Origin: Methanobacteriota archaeon
Lineage (GTDB): Archaea > Thermoplasmatota > Thermoplasmata > SG8-5 > DAIRED01
Assembly (NCBI GenBank): GCA_043799545.1
Contig: JAZDNO010000006.1
Location: 3,413 to 67,412, forward strand
DNA length: 64,000 bases
Direction: 5' to 3'
The notes under the pieces: generated by a model
Seen by the model: only the letters and a program-made list of their open reading frames with translations
Databases searched by the model: none
Told to the model about the DNA's origin: nothing
In this document: positions 3,589 through 63,545 of the stretch, piece by piece
Numbering within the stretch: position 1 is the first letter of the stretch
Layout: the number at the start of each line of letters is the position of its first letter
Program-made: the position numbers and the translations under genes

Positions 3589-4461
3589 ATGAACAAATTA
3601 TCGATGGTCTCCTACCTGGCGTACCTCGAGATTAAGCGAAAAGTACGAGGCGCGAGATACTTCGCCGAGGTCGACGTCACGGACAATTGCAACCTGAGGT
3701 GCGCCCATTGCTACCATTTCCACGGCAAGGAGGATTTTGAAAAGGCCGAGCTGCCGCTGGAGGCGTGGGCGCAACGATTCGAAGCGCTGCATGGCGAAGG
3801 CGTCCGTTTCGTCCTGTTGGTCGGCGGGGAGCCAGCGCTGAGGAACGACGTTCTTATGCTCGCCCACAGGACGTTCCCATTCGTTTACGTGATAACGAAT
3901 GGCACGATTCCTATTCCCAAGGAGTTCGACCACCTGTTGTTTGTATCGCTGGACGGACTGGAGAAGACCAACGATTCGATACGAGGCGCTGGCACATTTT
4001 CCAGAGTCCTGAAAAATTACTCCGGGGATCCAAGGGTCGCCATCAACATGACCGTCACCATGGGCAACCACAAAGAGCTGGAAGATGTCGTCGAGCTATC
4101 GAAGGAGCACGGCTTCAGGGGGGCCGTGTGCAACATCTGCGCAACCGGGACCGACAGGGCCATCCCACTGGCCATCAAGAAGGGCGAGCGGAAGCAGATT
4201 GTCGACGAGCTGAGGCGGGTGAAGAAGGCCCATCCGAGGCACTTCCTGCTTAGCCCGAAGATGCTTGACTGGTACGAGAAGGCGGACCATAGGGGGCGGT
4301 GCTACTGGGGCGACGATGTGCGGCATTTCGATGTCTCGTGGAACACGAGGAGGTGCTTCGGAACGAATGCGGACTGCTCCAACTGCGGCTGCCTGGCGGG
4401 CTCTTTCCAGAACCCGCTGGCGATGGCGCTCAGCCCGAGGGAGTTCGTCCATCTGGTTTGA
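3589..4461 (+). CDS. radical SAM protein, Cmo-like tungsten-cofactor oxidoreductase maturase, with C-terminal Cys-rich SPASM/twitch-like region
   Basis: CxxxCxxC motif DNCNLRCAHCY. C-terminal segment CFGTNADCSNCGCLAG. Sits immediately downstream of aor, as the radical-SAM cmo does in Pyrococcus. Confidence 0.7.
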   Translation: MNKLSMVSYLAYLEIKRKVRGARYFAEVDVTDNCNLRCAHCYHFHGKEDFEKAELPLEAWAQRFEALHGEGVRFVLLVGGEPALRNDVLMLAHRTFPFVYVITNGTIPIPKEFDHLLFVSLDGLEKTNDSIRGAGTFSRVLKNYSGDPRVAINMTVTMGNHKELEDVVELSKEHGFRGAVCNICATGTDRAIPLAIKKGERKQIVDELRRVKKAHPRHFLLSPKMLDWYEKADHRGRCYWGDDVRHFDVSWNTRRCFGTNADCSNCGCLAGSFQNPLAMALSPREFVHLV

Positions 4462-5363: not shown

Positions 5364-5546
5364 ATGCATCTGGAAGGCAAGGAGCTGGAGAAGGCTTTGC
5401 TGAAGCGGGCGAAGGGCGGAAAAATCTCGTGCCGCAACGCCCTTGCAATCGCCAAGGAGACGGGGACACCCCCAGCCAAGGTCGGGGCGATGCTGGACGA
5501 CCTCGGCATCAGGATTACCAACTGTCAGCTCGGATGCTTCGAGTAA
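5364..5546 (+). CDS. small hypothetical protein of 60 aa with 4 Cys; co-operonic with the sulfur-carrier pair
   Basis: ORF fills the gap between the ThiS-like gene and mobB. Cys pattern C-x31-C-x3-C. No family recognised. A GTG at 5355 is an alternative start. Confidence 0.3.
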   Translation: MHLEGKELEKALLKRAKGGKISCRNALAIAKETGTPPAKVGAMLDDLGIRITNCQLGCFE

Positions 5547-5561
5547 GGGTGGCCACCGCCA

Positions 5562-6095
5562 ATGATAACAGTCTCGGTTCTCGGCCTGAAGAAAAGCGGC
5601 AAGACCACTTCTTGCGAAGCTCTCATACGCGAGTTCAAATCCAGGGGACTCAGGGTCGGAGCAGTCAAATCCATGCACCACGCTAGGATGACAATCGACA
5701 CCAAAGGCAAGGACACATGGCGCCACCGTCAAGCGGGGGCGGATTTCGTCGTTTCCCTGTCGAAGGGTGAGATGGGGTACATTGAGGCGGTCATGGGCCG
5801 CGCCACGTTGCGAGAGGCAAGAAGGCATTTCCCCAAAGGGACCGGCATCCTCGTATGCGAAGGGGTGGAGGGCCTCGGAAGCGAGGCTATCAAGGTCGTG
5901 GCGCTGAAATCCGCCGCCCTTCTCCCGGAGACTTTGAAGATACGCGGTCTGGGCCGTGGAAAGAATGTGCTGGCGCTGACTGGAATTTTCACAAACGCAA
6001 CCAAGAAGCACTCGAAATATCCTGTTTTCAACTGCACAGTCAAACGCGACGCAAAGGCTCTGGCCGACCTGATATTGGAAGGAGGCATGCTATGA
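5562..6095 (+). CDS. mobB: molybdopterin-guanine dinucleotide biosynthesis adapter protein MobB, a P-loop GTPase
   Basis: Walker A motif VLGLKKSGKTT at the N-terminus. Size of 177 aa fits MobB. Confidence 0.7.
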   Translation: MITVSVLGLKKSGKTTSCEALIREFKSRGLRVGAVKSMHHARMTIDTKGKDTWRHRQAGADFVVSLSKGEMGYIEAVMGRATLREARRHFPKGTGILVCEGVEGLGSEAIKVVALKSAALLPETLKIRGLGRGKNVLALTGIFTNATKKHSKYPVFNCTVKRDAKALADLILEGGML

Positions 6096-13130: not shown

Positions 13131-13241
13131 CCCGACTTAGCTCAGCCTGGCTGGAGCGGCTGACTGTAGTAGGATTACCGGTTCGCCGGCATCGCCGCCG
13201 AAATCAGCAGGTCCCCAGTTCAAATCTGGGAGTCGGGACCA
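13131..13241 (+). tRNA. tRNA-Tyr(GTA) with a 33-nt intron (13170..13202) after position 37; CCA encoded
   Basis: Manual fold. Acceptor CCCGACT/AGTCGGG. D-arm GCTC/GAGC. Anticodon stem GCTGA/TCAGC with loop CTGTAG[intron]A. T-arm CCCAG-TTCAAAT-CTGGG. Discriminator A plus CCA. Confidence 0.8.
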
Positions 13242-13311
13242 TATTTTATTTGACAACGAGACTCCCAGAGAGGACTACTTAGGCATCTGAATCCGTCGTG
13301 GAAGTAGACCG

Positions 13312-13330
13312 AATCTGGGAGTCGGGACCA
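13312..13330 (+). repeat. 19-nt direct repeat of the tRNA-Tyr 3' end, AATCTGGGAGTCGGGACCA, 89 nt downstream of the original
   Basis: Exact copy of 13223..13241. An upstream segment GACTCCCAGA is its reverse complement, giving a long hairpin. Confidence 0.8.
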
Positions 13331-13488
13331 TTTTTTCTTATCTGTATCCAAACAAATCCAAGAAAAAAAGGTAGGACTAGCGGTCTCCGGCAATTACTCA
13401 GCAAGGAGCTAGTCCGAACCATCAAACATCGTCAAAGTAATCACAATCCTTCGACTCCCTTTTTATATCCCTCTCCCGATTTCCCACC

Positions 13489-16111: not shown

Positions 16112-16681
16112 TCACGGCACGAAGACCGCAGCGGAAACCACGGTCGTCCAGAGGCCGTGCTTGTCGCAGATGGTGCTCTGGGTTATGTTCGAGGTCTTGA
16201 TGATGCGGCCATCGATTTTGAATATCTCCTTTTTTGCATCGTAATGCTCGTCGAGGTCGAACTCAATTCCATAAGTCGAAGATAGCATCTGTGCGGCCAG
16301 GTCTTCCGCATAATCGCCGTTGCTCTTCTCCGTCTGCCCGAAGGAGTGGTGCTCGCTCAGGTAGCCGTAGTGCTTCTCGTCGGCCGGAATCGCCACGCCG
16401 ATGGATGCGGCCATGAGGCGGTTGGCCTCGTTCGAGCTGTTCTCGGCCAGGACGACAAAGACAATCTGTCCCGGGCTCAGCATCGAGAGCCCCTTGCTCT
16501 TGGGGAGGGTCTTGCAACCGGGCGGGAAGATGCTAGACACGCGCACGAGGTTGAATTTTTCGATACCCGCATCTCGTAACGCCACCTCGAAGCTGCTCAA
16601 TTTCTCCTTGTGCTTGCCGACACCTTTTGTGAAAAACAGGTATCTGGGCACGAAACTCGGACCGAAGGGCTCTTCAGGCAT
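16112..16681 (-). CDS. pdaD: pyruvoyl-dependent arginine decarboxylase
   Basis: FFTKGVGKH and [11 protein letters not shown] serinolysis-site region typical of PdaD. Confidence 0.8.
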
Positions 16682-16745
16682 GGAGCCGGCGATTGTTTTT
16701 CAGTATTTAAGATTATGCGAATTGTTATCGCGTGGGGCGAGGCCA

Positions 16746-16931
16746 TCCGACCCGCAACAGGATTCAATAGGAAACGGTATTGTACGTGCCAGAGGGCGCA
16801 AAATGATGACGATTGCTCAGACGATGGCGACGGAACCGCAATCGTCGGTTGTGACGATTCTACACATCTTATCGGATGAAATCGAATCGTCCAACCCGCA
16901 ACAATCTTTAATACAAAAACGGTATTGGTCG
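16746..16931 (+). repeat. two ~38-nt direct repeats (ACCCGCAACA-N6-AATA-N3-AAACGGTATTG) at 16746..16784 and 16893..16931
   Basis: The second copy places its AATA/TTTAATACA element ~26 nt upstream of tRNA-Ser (promoter-like). The first copy lies 147 nt upstream and could drive a small transcript. Confidence 0.45.
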
Positions 16932-16937
16932 TTTGTT

Positions 16938-17023
16938 GCGGGGATAGCCCAGCCCGGTAAGGCGCAGGATTGCTAATCCTGTGCTCTTTGAGCCCGGGGG
17001 TTCAAATCCCCCTCCCCGCGCCA
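16938..17023 (+). tRNA. tRNA-Ser(GCT) with long variable arm; CCA encoded
   Basis: Acceptor GCGGGGA/TCCCCGC. Anticodon arm CAGGA-TTGCTAA-TCCTG. Variable arm TGCTCTTTGAGC. T-arm GGGGG-TTCAAAT-CCCCC. Discriminator G plus CCA. Confidence 0.85.
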
Positions 17024-17116
17024 TAATTTTTATTTGGGAACGGGATTTGTACCGGAGGTTCACGAGCTACGCGGAGGCGCAGCGAGCAGGACGAGGCACG
17101 AAGTGGCTCGTCCGGG

Positions 17117-17133
17117 AATCCCCCTCCCCGCGC
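17117..17133 (+). repeat. 17-nt direct repeat of the tRNA-Ser 3' end, AATCCCCCTCCCCGCGC, 112 nt downstream of the original
   Basis: Exact copy of 17005..17021. Confidence 0.8.
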
Positions 17134-17155
17134 TCATGTGAAGCGCTCCTCCGTT

Positions 17156-18295
17156 TTACCTGCGCCACCTGTCGCGAATTGTGCCGATGTCTGGTTTGCT
17201 TCGGCGCTGAAGGGCGTAGCCGACAACCAGCACCGAGAGGCCGACGACAATTTGGATGAAAATGTCCTGGTCTTCCGGAGCGTTCGGAAGCCCGATAAGC
17301 CTTTCCAGATAGTTCATCGCGGCAACTGACAGGAACGTGAGGCCGACGATCGAAATGCTCACCCCCCAGAACGTTGGGGGGATGTTGTCCCGCATGACTA
17401 CGGCATTCACAGCTTTTCTCGATTCGAGCACTACCGCCGCCGCTCCGAACCACAAGGCGCTGGCGGACAGGAACTCGACTCCCCTGGTGAACCAACCTTC
17501 ATATTGCGAGTCGAGGGGCTTGGTCGATTCCTCAAACCCATTGGCAAGACCCGTTGCGAAAATTAGAATAGTTCCGATGTAGAACACTAGGGAGAGGTCG
17601 CCGGCATAAACGGAATCCCTGGTTTTTTTGGCCCCTATGACTATCGCGTCTCCGACGGCGTAGGTGCGCCAGAGAACGTAAATCCCTATCAGAACCGAGA
17701 GCGTCGGCAGCGCGTAGGATGTCACCGAACCCAAATACCCGGAGCCGTTCCACAGGTAGGCCAGGACCGGATACAGGTAGAAGAGCCCCACGAGGATGAA
17801 TGCCAGCGACAGCGGAGCGATTATCTTCGTCCTCAGCTTGGTATCGCGGGCGGCCTTTACGATGTAATAATACCAATTCTCCAGTTCCTTGCTTTGCTTC
17901 ACGTAAACGTCGTGGACGTGGTCTATCTTCAGGCGGCTGGACACCATCGGGAAGATGAACTCGTCCTCGGCCCCGTTGCTCACAAGGATGGCGTTGTTGG
18001 GATTGACGACCTCCATCACCTCCTCGAGCTGGCGCATCAGAGCGCGGTCAGATTTGTATCCGACATCCGCGTCGCCGCAGATAGTCGCAACCTCTACGTT
18101 CTCCCCGTCCTTTACCATCCGGTCATAGAGTTTTATTGCTGCCAAGACCGTGTTCGTGTCCGCATCTTCCGGGTCGGCGAGGCCTAAGGCCAGGGCGGCC
18201 CTGACGTTCTCCTCCCTCCCGATTATCGGTCCCTCGACCCCTCCCTTGACTCCAAGGTCGTCGTCGCGGTCTATGCAGAGAATAACTGTCTTCAT
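17156..18295 (-). CDS. archaeal polytopic membrane protein: N-terminal soluble domain plus ~8 TM helices (DUF373-like)
   Basis: N-terminal conserved start MKTVILCIDRDDDLG, then multiple TM helices. Resembles the archaea-specific DUF373 family. Confidence 0.5.
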   Translation of the reverse strand: MKTVILCIDRDDDLGVKGGVEGPIIGREENVRAALALGLADPEDADTNTVLAAIKLYDRMVKDGENVEVATICGDADVGYKSDRALMRQLEEVMEVVNPNNAILVSNGAEDEFIFPMVSSRLKIDHVHDVYVKQSKELENWYYYIVKAARDTKLRTKIIAPLSLAFILVGLFYLYPVLAYLWNGSGYLGSVTSYALPTLSVLIGIYVLWRTYAVGDAIVIGAKKTRDSVYAGDLSLVFYIGTILIFATGLANGFEESTKPLDSQYEGWFTRGVEFLSASALWFGAAAVVLESRKAVNAVVMRDNIPPTFWGVSISIVGLTFLSVAAMNYLERLIGLPNAPEDQDIFIQIVVGLSVLVVGYALQRRSKPDIGTIRDRWRR

Positions 18296-18437
18296 GTTTT
18301 CAGACCTTTATATATATCAGAAGATATTAAAGTTATGCAACGAAAAGTAAATTCACCATGCAGGCGTAGAGATTCACCATTTCCCTTTCGCCCCACCGCC
18401 GCCCGAGCGCCCCCCGCCCAACGGTTATCAGGACATC

Positions 18438-18448
18438 GGGTCCGCCCG
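18438..18448 (-). repeat. partial direct repeat of the tRNA-Pro 3' end (CGGGCGGACCC on the tRNA strand), ~80 nt downstream of the tRNA
   Basis: 11-nt exact copy of the tRNA-Pro acceptor/T-arm 3' segment plus flanking partial matches (TTTAAAC versus ATTTGAAC). Confidence 0.6.
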
Positions 18449-18530
18449 TTTAAACAGGCTGTCCCGACCAAAACGAATTTATGCTGGCTACCCCTTTTAG
18501 GGGTGGCGTAAGCTTTAAATAAAGTAAAAG

Positions 18531-18605
18531 TGGGTCCGCCCGGATTTGAACCGGGGTCTGAGCGTCCCGAACGCCCAAGTATAGACCAAGCTAGCCCACG
18601 GACCC
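18531..18605 (-). tRNA. tRNA-Pro(CGG)
   Basis: Minus-strand fold. Acceptor GGGTCCG/CGGACCC. Anticodon arm GGGCG-TTCGGGA-CGCTC. T-arm CCCGG-TTCAAAT-CCGGG. Discriminator A. The D-arm pairs weakly (GGCT/ATAC). Confidence 0.7.
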
Positions 18606-18712: not shown

Positions 18713-19369
18713 ATGGCTGGGGAGATAGCCCTCTCCGAAGACCCTGGAAAGACAATACGCAAGTGGCGCGAGACTTTCCACATCTCGCAGCAGGACGTGG
18801 CGAGGCACCTCCGCGTTTCCCCCTCGGTTGTGAGCGATTACGAATCCGGGAGGCGCAGGTCCCCCGGGGTGTCGACGGTCCGAAAGATAATCGACGCCAT
18901 AATCGAGCTAGACAAGGCTTCGGGGAGCCCCGTGGCGAAACAATTCGAAACATCGGACAAGCACGAGGCCGTCATGAGCATCCGCGAGTTCCACGTCGGA
19001 ATTCCGGCATCGGTCTTTATGAAGGAAATCGGTGGAAGGAACATAGCCAAGGATGTCAGCCTAATCAGGACGATACACGGCTTCACAGTCATCGACAGCC
19101 TGCGGGCGATAACTTCGCTGGCCTCCGCCGATTACCTGAAGATTTACGGGTGGAGCAGCGAGAGGGCGCTCCTTTTCACAGGCGTCAAATACGGGCGCAG
19201 CCCGATGATAGCAATACGCGCGCACCCGCTCAAGCCCGCGATGGTGGTTTACGTCCAGCCGGAGCAGGTCGACGAGCTCGCGATTAGGTTGGCAACCCTA
19301 GAAGGGATACCCCTTGTCACGACCCAGATGCCCGTCCAGGAGCTCATTTCGAAGCTGGAATCTATGTGA
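18713..19369 (+). CDS. XRE-type HTH transcriptional regulator with C-terminal ~150-aa domain (COG1395-like)
   Basis: HTH segment TIRKWRETFHISQQDVARHLRVSPSVVSDYESGRR. Start set at 18713 (GTG alternative at 18689); the longest ORF overlaps tRNA-Pro. Confidence 0.6.
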   Translation: MAGEIALSEDPGKTIRKWRETFHISQQDVARHLRVSPSVVSDYESGRRRSPGVSTVRKIIDAIIELDKASGSPVAKQFETSDKHEAVMSIREFHVGIPASVFMKEIGGRNIAKDVSLIRTIHGFTVIDSLRAITSLASADYLKIYGWSSERALLFTGVKYGRSPMIAIRAHPLKPAMVVYVQPEQVDELAIRLATLEGIPLVTTQMPVQELISKLESM

Positions 19370-19667
19370 ATAGGTTTTTATACTGAAGAGGTCTCTTTGA
19401 AATGCCCGCGCCACGAAGAATGTGCTGACACGTGATGCACATGGCAAGGCGAGGGGCGACACGAGCGCTCATATGGGTCCTTCGGAGAGACCGGCGGGAC
19501 GCCGAGCTATGATCCGACGACAACCCGGGCGCCCGACAAACCCCCGCTAATGGGTTATGTCCGCGGAGAGAGCTAAGCTTCCTATGAAGCGGAACGTTAG
19601 TGGCGGGGGACATTTTCCATCACTATTTATGGAGTTTCATTTTTAATACTTCGATGGCATCGCCCCG

Positions 19668-58394: not shown

Positions 58395-60701
58395 TTATTT
58401 CTTAGTGGCTTTTATCCTAGCGCAAACTGGACACCAGGTTCCATTATTTTTAATACTGCTTGGTCTTGCTTCCCAAGTATGTCCTTTATTGCACATCCAT
58501 TTTATCTTAGTATTATTGTTCAGATATTTGTCTGAAACACATCGCCCTCCTCGTTTTTGTGCAATTTCTTTCATTAACTCTATGTTTAACCTTTGGGATG
58601 CTCCTTTCTTCGATTGTGCACATATAGGGCACCATTGCCCCCTTTGAATATGACCTGGTGTATTCTCCCATTCATGACCGAAACCACAGCGCCATTTTAA
58701 CTTTGTTTTAGAATTAACATATCGTTTGGATAGACACATACCTCCGCAATTCTCTGCAATTCGTTGCATATGGTCTATTGTTTTGCCACGGCCAACACAA
58801 AAAGGGCACCAGTGGCCTTGCCTAACTGTTGATGGTCGAGCTAAGAATATATGCCCTTCTTTACATCTCCATTTCAATTTAGTTGATGAATTAAAATATT
58901 TTGGTGATATGCATTTTCCACCTTTCAATATTGCTAATTTCTCCATATCTTCAATCGACGGCCGTTGTGCATCAATTACCTTTTTGCGACTACAAATGTG
59001 ACACCAATGGCCTTTTGCTATTGATGTAGGTACTGCCAACCATTCATGGCCTTCACTACATTTCCATTTCAATTTAGTTGAAGAATTGATATATGCCTGA
59101 GATTGACAAATTCCATTCTTCACCGAAGCCAATTTATTCATATCTTCTATTGTTTTTCCATAGCCAACGCAATAGGGGCACCAATGACCCATGAAAATGC
59201 TTGCCGGGGGGGCCTCCCAAATGTGCCCATCTTTGCATTTCCATTTTAATTTGACATTACTTTTAATATATTTTTCCGAGAGACAATCTCCTCCTTTATT
59301 TTTCGCATATTCTCTCATATCTTCTATTGTTTTATGGCGTCCGACACAATAAGGGCACCAGCTCCGTCGCTTCACGTGAATTGGCATGGCTGACCAAATA
59401 TGGCCCTCTTTACATTTCCAATCTAATGCAGTATGGCTGTTTATATATACTTTTGAAAGGCAGGTCCCACCCCTTTCGCTCGCTATTTGTCTCATTTCAT
59501 TTATCTTGTTTGGCTTATAAATATTGAAAGATTTGTAATTATAAATATCTAAATTGTTAATGGTAAATTTCAAGTCTCTATTTTTGCACTGGTTGATGAT
59601 AAATTCCGCCATTTTATCGAATTCAATATCGTATGGTACTTCTATTAAAGCGATGTTATGTTTCACACATAACTCTCTTTTTACTTGGTCCCTCATCTGC
59701 CTTTCTATTAACGATTCCTTCTGATCAAAAAACTTCTTAGTTTTATAATGTTGCACTCCAGAATATTCAAAAGCTATGCCTAGTTCTTTGCAGTAACCAT
59801 CTAATTCCATTTTATTGCCCGTCTTTGGATTTATCAACCAGGATGGTTTTATCCTTGGAAACTCCTTTTTGAAAAGTCGTTGAAAGATCTCTCGACATAT
59901 TTTCTCGCTCACGCCAGTTTTACATACTGGACACCATTGTCCTTTTTTAATATTACTAACTATATTTACCCACGAGTGCCCCTCGCTACATTGCCATTTT
60001 AAAGGAGTTCGATTACTGGAATATTTGCTGGATAGTAATAGTCCACCTCTTGCTTTGGCAAGGTCTTGAATATCCTTAATGCGTAATCTTTGTCTGTCGG
60101 TATTGCGTTCTATAGCGCAAGTAGGACACCATTGACCACGTTTTACACTATGTGGCGCCATATAAAACGTATGTCCTTTTTTACAACGCCATAATAACTT
60201 TAAAAAGGCATCACCACATTTTTTTGATAGGCAAGTACCACTCCGTTCGGCAGCAATTGTACGAAGATCTATTATATCGGTTCGGGCTTTGCCAGCACAA
60301 CGTGGACACCAAGAACCTTGGTCCTTCACACTATTGACACTGGCACTCCACTCGTGCCCTTTTGAACACTTCCACTTATATCTATTTCCACTGCGTGTAT
60401 AAACTAAAGATAAAAACTCTCCACCTCTGTCTTTAGCTAATTTCTGAATATCCTCAATTTTTAACCTACTTCGATTTGCATTGTTTATGTTACGACATAT
60501 AGGACACCAGTGACCTTGAACTAATGAGCTCGGAACAGCTGACCACTCATGACCACATTTGCATTGCCACTTCAATTTTGAATGCATATCAATATATCTT
60601 TCAGATAAACATTTACCGTCATGATTGGCAGCGTAAGTTCTCATATCCTCAATCGTTTTTTTCTTATTCATAGGCAAAGAACCATATCTGGGACCAATCA
60701 C
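58395..60701 (-). CDS. 768-aa protein with ~11 tandem zinc-ribbon repeats (K-W-x-C-x2-G-H-x-W ... G-x-W-C-P-x-C) flanking an embedded DUF559/Vsr-like PD-(D/E)xK nuclease domain; AT-rich island
   Basis: Repeats such as KLKWKCSEGHEWLAVPTSIAKGHWCHIC. Central domain ELDGYCKELGIAFEYSGVQHY matches the VDF-x-IE-DG-QH core of DUF559/Vsr-like endonucleases. GC content far below the flanks. Confidence 0.65.
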   Translation of the reverse strand: MIGPRYGSLPMNKKKTIEDMRTYAANHDGKCLSERYIDMHSKLKWQCKCGHEWSAVPSSLVQGHWCPICRNINNANRSRLKIEDIQKLAKDRGGEFLSLVYTRSGNRYKWKCSKGHEWSASVNSVKDQGSWCPRCAGKARTDIIDLRTIAAERSGTCLSKKCGDAFLKLLWRCKKGHTFYMAPHSVKRGQWCPTCAIERNTDRQRLRIKDIQDLAKARGGLLLSSKYSSNRTPLKWQCSEGHSWVNIVSNIKKGQWCPVCKTGVSEKICREIFQRLFKKEFPRIKPSWLINPKTGNKMELDGYCKELGIAFEYSGVQHYKTKKFFDQKESLIERQMRDQVKRELCVKHNIALIEVPYDIEFDKMAEFIINQCKNRDLKFTINNLDIYNYKSFNIYKPNKINEMRQIASERGGTCLSKVYINSHTALDWKCKEGHIWSAMPIHVKRRSWCPYCVGRHKTIEDMREYAKNKGGDCLSEKYIKSNVKLKWKCKDGHIWEAPPASIFMGHWCPYCVGYGKTIEDMNKLASVKNGICQSQAYINSSTKLKWKCSEGHEWLAVPTSIAKGHWCHICSRKKVIDAQRPSIEDMEKLAILKGGKCISPKYFNSSTKLKWRCKEGHIFLARPSTVRQGHWCPFCVGRGKTIDHMQRIAENCGGMCLSKRYVNSKTKLKWRCGFGHEWENTPGHIQRGQWCPICAQSKKGASQRLNIELMKEIAQKRGGRCVSDKYLNNNTKIKWMCNKGHTWEARPSSIKNNGTWCPVCARIKATKK

Positions 60702-63339: not shown

Positions 63340-63545
63340 GCGGTTATCGGTCGAGAAAGATGGCTCAGTCCGATTTTCTATGCATCAAGAGCTTTCTTTG
63401 GGAGGACTATAACAATCCGTGTATCGGTTGAGCCGAGCTGGGAGAGCCCGAATTTCTTTGCTCCAAATGCTTTCTTTGGGAGGGCTCTTCCAGAGAGGCG
63501 AAACTAAAGAAAGCGTTTCAGCGCAGCGAGACTCAAAGAAAGGGC
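63340..63545. repeat. imperfect ~78-nt tandem duplication carrying GCTTTCTTTGGGAGG (63391, 63469) and inverted copies AAAGAAAGCG / CAAAGAAAGGG (63505, 63534)
   Basis: Read directly. Units begin CGGTTATCGGTCGAG / CGTGTATCGGTTGAG and end CTTTCTTTGGGAGG(A/G)CT. Confidence 0.5.

Follow-up and report, generated by a model that had tools for sequence, protein, structure and literature searches.

A repeated tRNA-Ser 3' end and the hairpin cassette that carries it in a genome of the Thermoplasmatota

The tRNA-Ser locus and its second 3' end

The window considered here, by which we mean the whole stretch of DNA that was analysed, comprises 64,000 nucleotides (nt) of an archaeal genome assigned to the Thermoplasmatota (GenBank assembly GCA_043799545.1, contig JAZDNO010000006.1, positions 3,413 to 67,412 of the forward strand), and our subject is a tRNA-Ser(GCT) gene within it whose 3' end recurs a short distance downstream, at the far end of what we call a cassette. 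The repeated sequence, AATCCCCCTCCCCGCGC, is 17 nt long and is found in two exact copies (17/17 identity), one at 17005-17021, inside the tRNA gene, and the other at 17117-17133; a pattern search that tolerated up to three mismatches returned these two sites only. The copy inside the gene covers T-loop nt 58-60, the 3' strand of the T-stem (CCCCC), the 3' strand of the acceptor stem (TCCCCGC), the discriminator G and one extra C. In the window CCA comes after the first copy and not after the second. The features of the locus, with their coordinates, strand and the basis on which each was called, are the following:

16938..17023, plus strand: tRNA-Ser(GCT), contiguous, without intron, CCA encoded (ARAGORN; Rfam RF00005, 58.5 bits)
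17005..17021, plus strand: first copy of the repeat, denoted X (sequence, pattern search)
17024..17035, plus strand: T-rich tract TAATTTTTATTT immediately after the tRNA (sequence; the same place is T-rich in all orthologues)
17036..17053, plus strand: X', an inverted copy of the tRNA 3' end, GGGAACGGGATTTGTACC, forming the 5' arm of a basal stem (motif match, pairing with X)
17054..17062, plus strand: direct half T-arm, GGAGG-TTCA (alignments; scan for bulge-helix-bulge (BHB)-style motifs)
17063..17086, plus strand: hairpin b, variable at its top, on a stem CGAGC/GCGAG that includes tandem G.A pairs (alignment structure)
17089..17113, plus strand: hairpin c, GGACGAG...CTCGTCC (alignment structure)
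17117..17133, plus strand: second copy of X, forming the 3' arm of the basal stem (sequence, list of open reading frames (ORFs), pattern search)
17156..18295, minus strand: DUF373 membrane-protein gene, convergent with tRNA-Ser (ORF list; Pfam PF04123)

The DUF373 gene is a neighbour that lies outside the element, and it served as the anchor by which orthologous loci were collected. The first-pass annotation had located the second copy just upstream of the 3' end of this gene; it is indeed close by, although the placement was slightly off, since the ORF occupies 17156-18295 on the minus strand and the copy is therefore intergenic, 22 nt past the stop codon. The T-rich tract after the tRNA appears, judging by its sequence, to resemble an archaeal oligo-T terminator. 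According to the ORF list there is no integrase, cargo or ORF remnant in the 95 nt between the two copies: the listed ORFs that overlap this spacer start within the tRNA or overlap DUF373 out of frame, and their lengths shift by indels among the orthologues.

Exact direct repeats of at least 17 nt occur at five places in the 64-kb window, two of the five being tRNA 3' ends (Ser and Tyr), while first-order Markov simulations gave a mean of only 0.23 repeated 17-mers per window. The repeat at tRNA-Ser is also present in the orthologous loci that we designate L001, L006/L007, L008, L022 and L025/L026. The first-pass annotation had taken the duplication seriously unless it proved to be a chance match missing from orthologous loci; given the exact identity at both sites, the simulated expectation and the presence of the repeat in the orthologues, we consider it non-random.

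The cassette proper is approximately 100 nt long (17036-17133), the T-rich tract being the first part of the 95 nt that separate the copies. It opens with X', in which GGGAACGGGATTTGTACC is to be compared with GGGGAGGGGGATTTGAACC, the reverse complement of the tRNA-Ser end, and within which the T-arm motif GGTTCRAATCC was matched on the minus strand at 17043-17053. We also considered, and rejected, the possibility that this arm copies the 5' strand of the T-stem or of the acceptor stem in direct orientation. By eye this scored 6/11 bases versus 11/14 for the reverse-complement reading, which fits better also in that the arm in L025 is the GAGGA complement and not the GGGGA of the tRNA itself. 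The tail of X' forms a small hairpin (a) together with the half T-arm GGAGG-TTCA, which is itself included in a 26-nt near-invariant block, GGGATTTGTRCCGRAGGTTYACGAGC. The variable top of hairpin b shows compensatory changes (in helix 3, four pairs are altered on both sides), and in L001 and L006 hairpin c is replaced by GCCGCGC...GCGCGGC, with pairing retained. After hairpin c come GGG and then AAT-CCCCC-TCCCCGC-G-C, which is the second copy, so that the order of T-arm/acceptor-3' segments along the locus is direct, inverted, direct.

RNAalifold pairs X' with X in a basal stem that closes the three hairpins, and the fold so modelled would resemble the stacked acceptor and T-stem of tRNA-Ser (its "top half", or minihelix) with an enlarged T-loop. 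The third segment reads, in order, as a T-stem-like GGAGG, TTCA, the insert, (T)GAA, T, CCCCC and the acceptor 3' strand. Since TGAA precedes X and TTCA sits in the conserved block, as is the case in four of the five cassette lineages, this segment resembles a T-arm interrupted at position 57/58. No RF00005 hit was obtained on 17024-17140, even at E <= 10 (471-nt query), and Rfam 15 returned no credible family for the cassette, or for the 5' units described below, at gathering or permissive thresholds in the window, the 471-nt locus or the L025 locus. Readings of the conserved blocks as C/D-box, H/ACA, hammerhead or K-turn motifs were set aside because the required boxes are absent by eye, and a candidate repeated hairpin family, TAGTCCGAA, was dropped because it shows no enrichment in the window.

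Conservation across orthologous loci

An exact look-up of the window's own DUF373 protein returned no record; loci L001-L011, L022 and L025/26 were fetched via DUF373 homologues at 91, 88, 78, 75, 68 and 49% identity. The spacer and the second copy are alignable in L001, L006/7, L008 and L022, and L025/26 show the same architecture with a different insert. In L008 the promoter, the tRNA and the cassette are inverted as one block relative to DUF373 and the arginine decarboxylase gene, and in L009 and L014 the tRNA-Ser gene is likewise found in opposite orientation. Tandem double cassettes are present in L022 and L025. No second copy was seen in the 167 nt available for L013, the contig of L014 is cut 25 nt after the tRNA, and at the more distant DUF373 loci L024, L027 and L028 the tRNA-Ser neighbour is lost.

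Identity to the window was calculated for four-fold degenerate sites of DUF373 and for the core of the cassette:

L001: DUF373 four-fold degenerate sites 0.47; cassette core 0.64
L006: DUF373 four-fold degenerate sites 0.50; cassette core 0.65
L022: DUF373 four-fold degenerate sites 0.33; cassette core 0.72
L008: DUF373 four-fold degenerate sites 0.30; cassette core 0.86

Synonymous sites of DUF373 are thus at or near saturation (30-50% identity), while the cassette core stands at 64-86%; the upstream intergenic region has an identity of 0.39-0.46 to L001, L006 and L022. The highest identity to the window's cassette core is that of L008, whose host is the farthest removed among the five in the comparison. 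A conflict between the cassette and host trees was considered as proof of lateral transfer and rejected, since the host distances are nearly in a three-way tie (0.91/0.88/0.87) and the conflict is not robust.

The helices are maintained as well. With five sequences per alignment, and with the tested structure derived from the same alignment, the 27 pairs of the Ser cassette are formed in 93% of cells (versus 33-46% in slid controls), and the covariation score is 0.278 versus 0.143 after shuffling, a value that none of 500 shuffles reached. In the cassette found next to tRNA-Pro (see below), 84% of the cells of 25 pairs are paired and nine pairs are altered on both sides, again with 0/500 shuffles scoring as high.

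The arms also follow the sequence of the tRNA that they copy. The end of tRNA-Ser in the L025 clade is TCCTCGC; the two cassettes there both have TCCTCG(C/T)GC, together with the 5' arm GAGGAGGGGGAT, which is the exact complement of the clade's TCCTC acceptor strand and not the 5' strand of the tRNA itself, GGGGA. The same is seen at tRNA-Pro, where relatives have the acceptor GGGTCCG/CGGACCC and cassette arms GGGTCCGCCC...GGGCGGACCC, and L008 has GGGCTCG/CGAGCCC and arms GGGCTCGCCC...CCGGGCGAGC with the same two changes. Such tracking could possibly stem from selection for mimicry of the tRNA helix, or from templated correction or unequal exchange between closely spaced repeats. In any case the cassette is maintained in a manner unlike that of an ordinary attachment (att) scar: it is conserved far above the neutral level, shows compensatory changes, follows the tRNA when the latter is inverted, has been amplified in tandem, and has arms that track the acceptor stem.

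Related cassettes, 5' units and T-loop introns

The first-pass annotation had called the tRNA-Ser repeat the second instance of a pattern already seen at tRNA-Tyr, and the pattern does recur, both there and, in degenerate form, at tRNA-Pro:

13131..13241, plus strand: tRNA-Tyr(GTA) with a canonical 33-nt intron (ARAGORN, intron mode)
13242..13339, plus strand: tRNA-Tyr cassette, consisting of a T-tract, X' (GACTCCCAGA), a hairpin, and X with a terminator (AATCTGGGAGTCGGGACCATTTTTTCTT)
18530..18605, minus strand: tRNA-Pro(CGG) (ARAGORN)
18436..18510, minus strand: degenerate tRNA-Pro cassette with the copy AAACGGGCGGACCCGA (12/16 bases matched)

The last 20 nt of tRNA-Tyr are copied exactly (13223/13312), and when the T-run is included the match extends to 28 nt at 93% identity (13223-13250 versus 13312-13339, 89 nt apart). 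The Tyr cassette amounts to an 89-bp indel difference, with a clean empty site in L008 that has the same downstream flank; its arms are GACT+CCCAG ... CTGGG+AGTC. The degenerate copy at tRNA-Pro lies approximately 78 nt downstream of the gene, and control regions upstream matched at no more than 11/16 bases. Well-formed Pro cassettes, with arms GGGTCCG+CCC ... GGG+CGGACCC, are found in L007 (545-620), L008 (12355-12431), L009 (5344-5419) and L022 (2642-2717). For Ser, Tyr and Pro alike the copies start at T-loop position 58-60, and the three tRNAs of the window share the same cassette architecture with inserts that are unrelated in sequence. The Tyr and Pro cassettes, too, consist of a helix like the stacked acceptor and T-stems in which a structured insert replaces the T-loop.

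tRNA-Tyr was missed both by ARAGORN at its default settings and by Rfam; indeed, an Rfam cmscan of the whole window reported neither tRNA-Pro nor tRNA-Tyr at either threshold, and ARAGORN calls both, so that the omission is a gap in the sensitivity of the tool and not a matter of biology. Downstream of the Tyr cassette, at 13368-13420, we also observed a conserved hairpin, GGTAGGACTAGCGG...GGAGCTAGTCCGAACC. Similar hairpins, ending in the T-loop-like AGTCCGAATCC, follow the Pro cassettes in L009 and L022, and the Tyr cassette's own hairpin looks related to the one at 13368-13420.

In several relatives (L006/7, L012, L016, L022 and L025/26) there is, in addition, a mirror-image unit on the 5' side of tRNA-Ser, which is missing in the window and in L001. 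The units were located as follows:

L006: 4630-4740, minus strand
L022: 5788-5900, minus strand
L025: 7459-7570, minus strand
L016: about 4110-4300

In each of them tRNA nt 1-22 are copied first; a structured insert of approximately 60 nt then occupies the position of the D-loop, and a stretch resembling nt 22-36 precedes the real tRNA. Between this stretch and the tRNA, L025 has a tail complementary to the copied 5' end; the complementarity is less exact in L022, and in L006 there is no pairing. The insert, CCGGCAC...GCGCCGG, is highly conserved: between L025 and L022 its identity is approximately 85-90% by eye, and the DUF373 proteins of these two loci are 48% identical. The 5' unit has no match in Rfam.

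A separate conserved element, located at 16797-16905 of the window, upstream of the tRNA-Ser promoter, has a C-box-like ATGATGA, a stem GACGATTGC/GCAATCGTC and a second hairpin; it is common to L006, L012 and L016 and absent from L001, and could represent an unannotated small RNA. Rfam gave no support to the further idea that L012 and L016 carry a signal recognition particle (SRP) RNA upstream of tRNA-Ser.

The position at which the copies begin is also one at which introns reside in sister lineages. Genome and metagenome collections were scanned for the tRNA-Ser sequence from anticodon to T-stem, and in L012, L016 and L015, from metagenome-assembled genomes (MAGs) labelled Thermoplasmata or Methanomassiliicoccales, the tRNA-Ser T-loop contains inserts of 37 or 118 nt. 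The tRNA-Ser(GCT) genes interrupted in this way, at about position 59/60, none of which was called by ARAGORN, are:

L012: about 5534-5655
L016: about 4304-4425
L015: about 648-850
L009: 8188-8403

In L012 and L016 the minimum-energy fold shows the T-stem, a 4-bp helix TTCA/TGAA and, one on each strand, two 3-nt bulges, which makes a BHB motif; in L015 a BHB motif with one mismatch in the 4-bp helix was obtained from the BHB scan rather than from the minimum-energy fold. Removal of the insert in silico yielded a valid 84-nt tRNA-Ser(GCT) by ARAGORN in all three, and these inserts are, as modelled, predicted to be spliceable BHB introns. The insertion in L009 is homologous to that of L015 and lies at the same point, its contig ending inside the insertion; L014, in which the upstream flank is identical to that of L009 over more than 100 nt, is intron-less, and both contigs break at the locus. 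In L015 and L016 an extra downstream copy of the tRNA 3' end, with a terminator, is preceded by an inverted T-loop-like segment.

The tRNA-Ser of the window is not interrupted by an intron, as it is contiguous and scores as a full tRNA. When its cassette was examined for a BHB motif, it showed GGAA in place of TGAA, a second bulge of 1 nt and no adjacent inner helix, and the sole mismatch-free candidate in the window, which has a weak 3-bp outer helix, is in competition with the continuous basal stem. Only L001 and L006 have a BHB-like register, the motif being incomplete in the window and in L008 and L022; both controls, L012 and L016, were recovered mismatch-free. The idea that a read-through transcript might be spliced so as to join copy 1 to copy 2 was rejected, as the BHB register for it fails. 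Hairpin c (25 nt) nevertheless resembles a hairpin of the L015/L009 intron, with p-values from 0.04 to below 0.0005 in three of four pairwise comparisons and 0.32 in the fourth.

Three further observations were made elsewhere in the window. A match to HgcG (Pab40), an RNA of the H/ACA type, was obtained on the plus strand at 19348-19617 (Rfam 60.7 bits, E = 6.6e-14, below the gathering score of 77). A long minus-strand ORF (768 aa) at 58395-60701 contains a periodic DNA repeat with 177- and 195-nt spacing and nine copies of a 40-nt core, which suggests a predicted product built of repeats of about 59-65 residues. At 63358-63486 a 51-nt segment occurs in two copies of 76% identity, 78 nt apart.

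Origin, upkeep and relation to known systems

How did such a cassette come about, and why does it persist? We give a probability of roughly 0.5 to the following account: the tRNA end was duplicated, with the T-loop as the centre of the event, and the product has been kept by selection as a structured hairpin cassette tied to tRNA-Ser. The origin would have been a partial duplication or a recombination event anchored in the T-loop, and recombination of this kind is the most likely origin because the boundary of the repeat fits the block used by T-loop integrases and because integration is a documented or proposed source of tRNA fragments. Thereafter, selection would keep the cassette as a structured hairpin. 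We favour retention because a plain scar would leave unexplained the gene-free spacing of about 95 nt at three tRNAs, the inverted copy, the conservation and the covariation. The weakest step is the form in which the cassette might work: a transcript reading through past the oligo-T tract may fold into a hairpin that mimics the tRNA end, and this hairpin may provide a second site at which 3' ends are formed or processed, or may act as an insulator. In the DNA itself, the recombination-prone X...X repeats would yield arrays, empty sites and possibly T-loop-intron alleles.

Several observations count against this account or parts of it. A T-tract follows X in the Tyr cassettes and in L015, L016, L022 and L025, but L001 and L006 have none and that of the window is weak; such inconsistency makes a role as terminator less probable and is one reason why we regard the proposed working form as weak. 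Moreover, a simple terminator scan found no hairpin followed by a T-run in 16600-17300, and an RNA role for the cassette is something we infer purely from sequence. Folded as a single sequence, the window's own Ser cassette does no better than shuffled sequence (z = -0.93), and the covariation test, with its five sequences per alignment, shares that alignment with the structure on which it was run. Templated correction between inverted repeats, or unequal crossing-over, could make the arms co-evolve without any selection. In the Tyr cassette X' has uncompensated mismatches in L001 and L006, and the window's Pro cassette is degenerate. As for a connection to the T-loop introns, an nhmmer profile gave no hit between them and the cassette, and the likeness of one 25-nt hairpin is suggestive of a possible homology of the insert to these introns; the spacer as a homologue of the L015/L009 intron was downgraded on both grounds.

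One may also consider an alternative in which the cassette is a miniature non-autonomous element of approximately 95-110 bp, inserting at the T-loop/3' end of tRNA genes by means of a recombinase supplied in trans, with the 17-mers being att-like and X'/X serving as recombinase-binding repeats. An insert exactly bounded by direct repeats is what such an element would leave, and it would also account for the presence or absence of 89 bp at tRNA-Tyr with its clean empty site in L008, for L009 and L014, which are identical over more than 100 nt of flank and differ in that only one has the T-loop insertion, for the tandem copies in L022 and L025 (as in repeated integration), and for inserts as different as 37 and 118 nt at the same T-loop site of related hosts. 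The affinity between the cassettes of the window and of L008, whose host is the farthest removed among the five, points the same way, although with host distances in a near three-way tie (0.91/0.88/0.87) this tree conflict is not robust. Nevertheless, the Ser, Tyr and Pro inserts are unrelated in sequence, hence there is no common element, and neither the window nor the fetched loci contain further copies; X' tracks the acceptor variants of its host, indicating long residence in place; and no candidate recombinase was found, nor did scans of viral contigs provide an attP-like partner. We therefore regard a mobile element of this kind as unlikely, and slightly more doubtful still is a scar of intron loss, in which the ancestral tRNA-Ser had a T-loop intron, an intron-less 3' end with CCA and terminator was patched in through recombination with incoming DNA or with an intron-less attP, and the old half T-arm, intron and 3' exon (the second 17-mer) were displaced downstream. 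Here the inverted copy X' would go unexplained and decay would be expected, yet the cassette is conserved with its helices kept; in addition, the window, L008 and L022 lack an intact BHB motif, and the profile search found no significant homology between cassette and intron. What does speak for intron loss is that the third segment reads as a T-arm interrupted at nt 57/58, that sister lineages have BHB introns at the same position, that hairpin c resembles the L015/L009 intron hairpin, that CCA follows copy 1 and not copy 2 in the window, and that a model of intron recombination between attP and attB has been published (PMC3293823).

An ordinary decayed att scar, left when a virus or plasmid that had integrated in tRNA-Ser was reduced by deletions to approximately 95 bp between attL and attR, appears improbable. 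The first-pass annotation, although it named no mechanism, implied such an att pair, and as regards the origin of the repeat this may be appropriate, since a repeat from the T-loop to the 3' end of the tRNA fits the block that T-loop-crossover integrases reportedly use. Partial tRNA genes made by integration are, furthermore, common in archaea (PMC9897764). As a full account the att pair fails, however: the spacer is 95 nt with no integrase, cargo or ORF remnant, near-complete loss to 90-110 bp would be needed independently at three tRNAs, and the spacer, instead of decaying, has been conserved as a structured hairpin; its inverted third copy of the tRNA end, deep conservation, compensatory changes and co-variation with the tRNA are not expected of neutral debris. 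Finally, a chance match, for which only the low complexity of the C-rich 17-mer could be invoked, can practically be dismissed in view of the 0.23 repeated 17-mers simulated per window, the five independent orthologous assemblies with the repeat and the same pattern at tRNA-Tyr and tRNA-Pro.

The cassette belongs to the known phenomena of tRNA-gene duplication and disruption, yet is more than a plain att repeat. Integrases that target tRNA genes classically cross over in the T-loop, and work by Williams in Nucleic Acids Res. in 2002 is said to have described T-loop-crossover integrases with an identity block running from the T-loop to the tRNA 3' end. As with att repeats in tRNA genes (of the SSV and pNOB8 types, and of the T-loop crossover class), the tRNA is left intact, copies stack in tandem, and the insertion is present or absent among relatives. 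In contrast to such repeats, the copies here are 95 nt apart without integrase or cargo, whereas known cases of tRNA integration span about 9-23 kb (PMC9897764), and the spacer is conserved and structured, holds an inverted third copy and has arms that co-vary with the tRNA. No exact attP-like match for the Ser, Tyr or Pro ends was found in IMG/VR, plasmid collections not having been searched, and seven hits in viral contigs for the 16-mer of the other clade were rejected as chance matches, as they fall inside coding sequence and lack T-arm context.

Disrupted archaeal tRNA genes offer a closer parallel in some respects. At the Caldiarchaeum tRNA-Thr locus (Sugahara et al. 2012, PMC3293823), too, fragments lie beside a full gene, and intron-bearing and intron-less versions exist at one locus, as they do here, where the T-loop site is the site of BHB introns in L012, L015 and L016; the model proposed there is that recombination between attP and attB sites that differ by an intron produces intron gain or loss together with tRNA fragments. 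Unlike in the Caldiarchaeum case, the interruption affects a copy outside the functional gene, which is itself continuous, and there is no recombinase gene; the fragment is approximately 100 nt away versus 1.8 kb, and the cassette is conserved over deep divergence, whereas the Caldiarchaeum locus varies within one population. The stacked acceptor/T-stem helix at the end of a transcript unit is reminiscent of tRNA minihelices and tRNA-like structures such as the mascRNA of MALAT1, although two or three pairs at the top of the acceptor stem fail to form in the Ser and Tyr cassettes, and a large insert replaces the T-loop. A weak Rfam hit to mascRNA-menRNA (14.7 bits, E = 3.8) falls on the tRNA itself and not on the cassette. 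Casposons also leave a short duplication of a tRNA 3' end as their target-site duplication, and one casposon lineage is known from a relative of the Thermoplasmata. A casposon insertion is nevertheless not supported: the spacer of 95 nt does not end in inverted repeats, there is no Cas1, polymerase or other casposon gene, and the start of the repeat lies in the T-loop.

A partial tRNA gene found next to a tRNA gene is usually read as the dead scar of a virus or plasmid integration. A partial copy approximately 100 nt away that is folded against an inverted copy, is conserved and tracks its tRNA suggests instead a function or an active homogenising mechanism. There may even be, and we put this forward quite tentatively, an undescribed class of tRNA-linked structured RNAs in a lineage of the Thermoplasmatota, in which an inverted and a direct copy of a tRNA's own end mimic the acceptor/T-arm minihelix, are held by purifying selection and co-evolve with the tRNA, with possible interconversion with T-loop introns through recombination of the repeats; if true, such recombination would be a direct, testable route for the gain and loss of non-canonical tRNA introns. 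On the practical side, since ARAGORN misses tRNA-Ser genes with T-loop introns, the tRNA sets of MAGs that contain them may falsely look incomplete. Because the junction of the cassette coincides with the T-loop intron site of sister lineages, in which near-identical strains differ in having or lacking the intron, the locus provides a concrete, testable intermediate for the gain and loss of non-canonical archaeal tRNA introns and for the formation of tRNA fragments.

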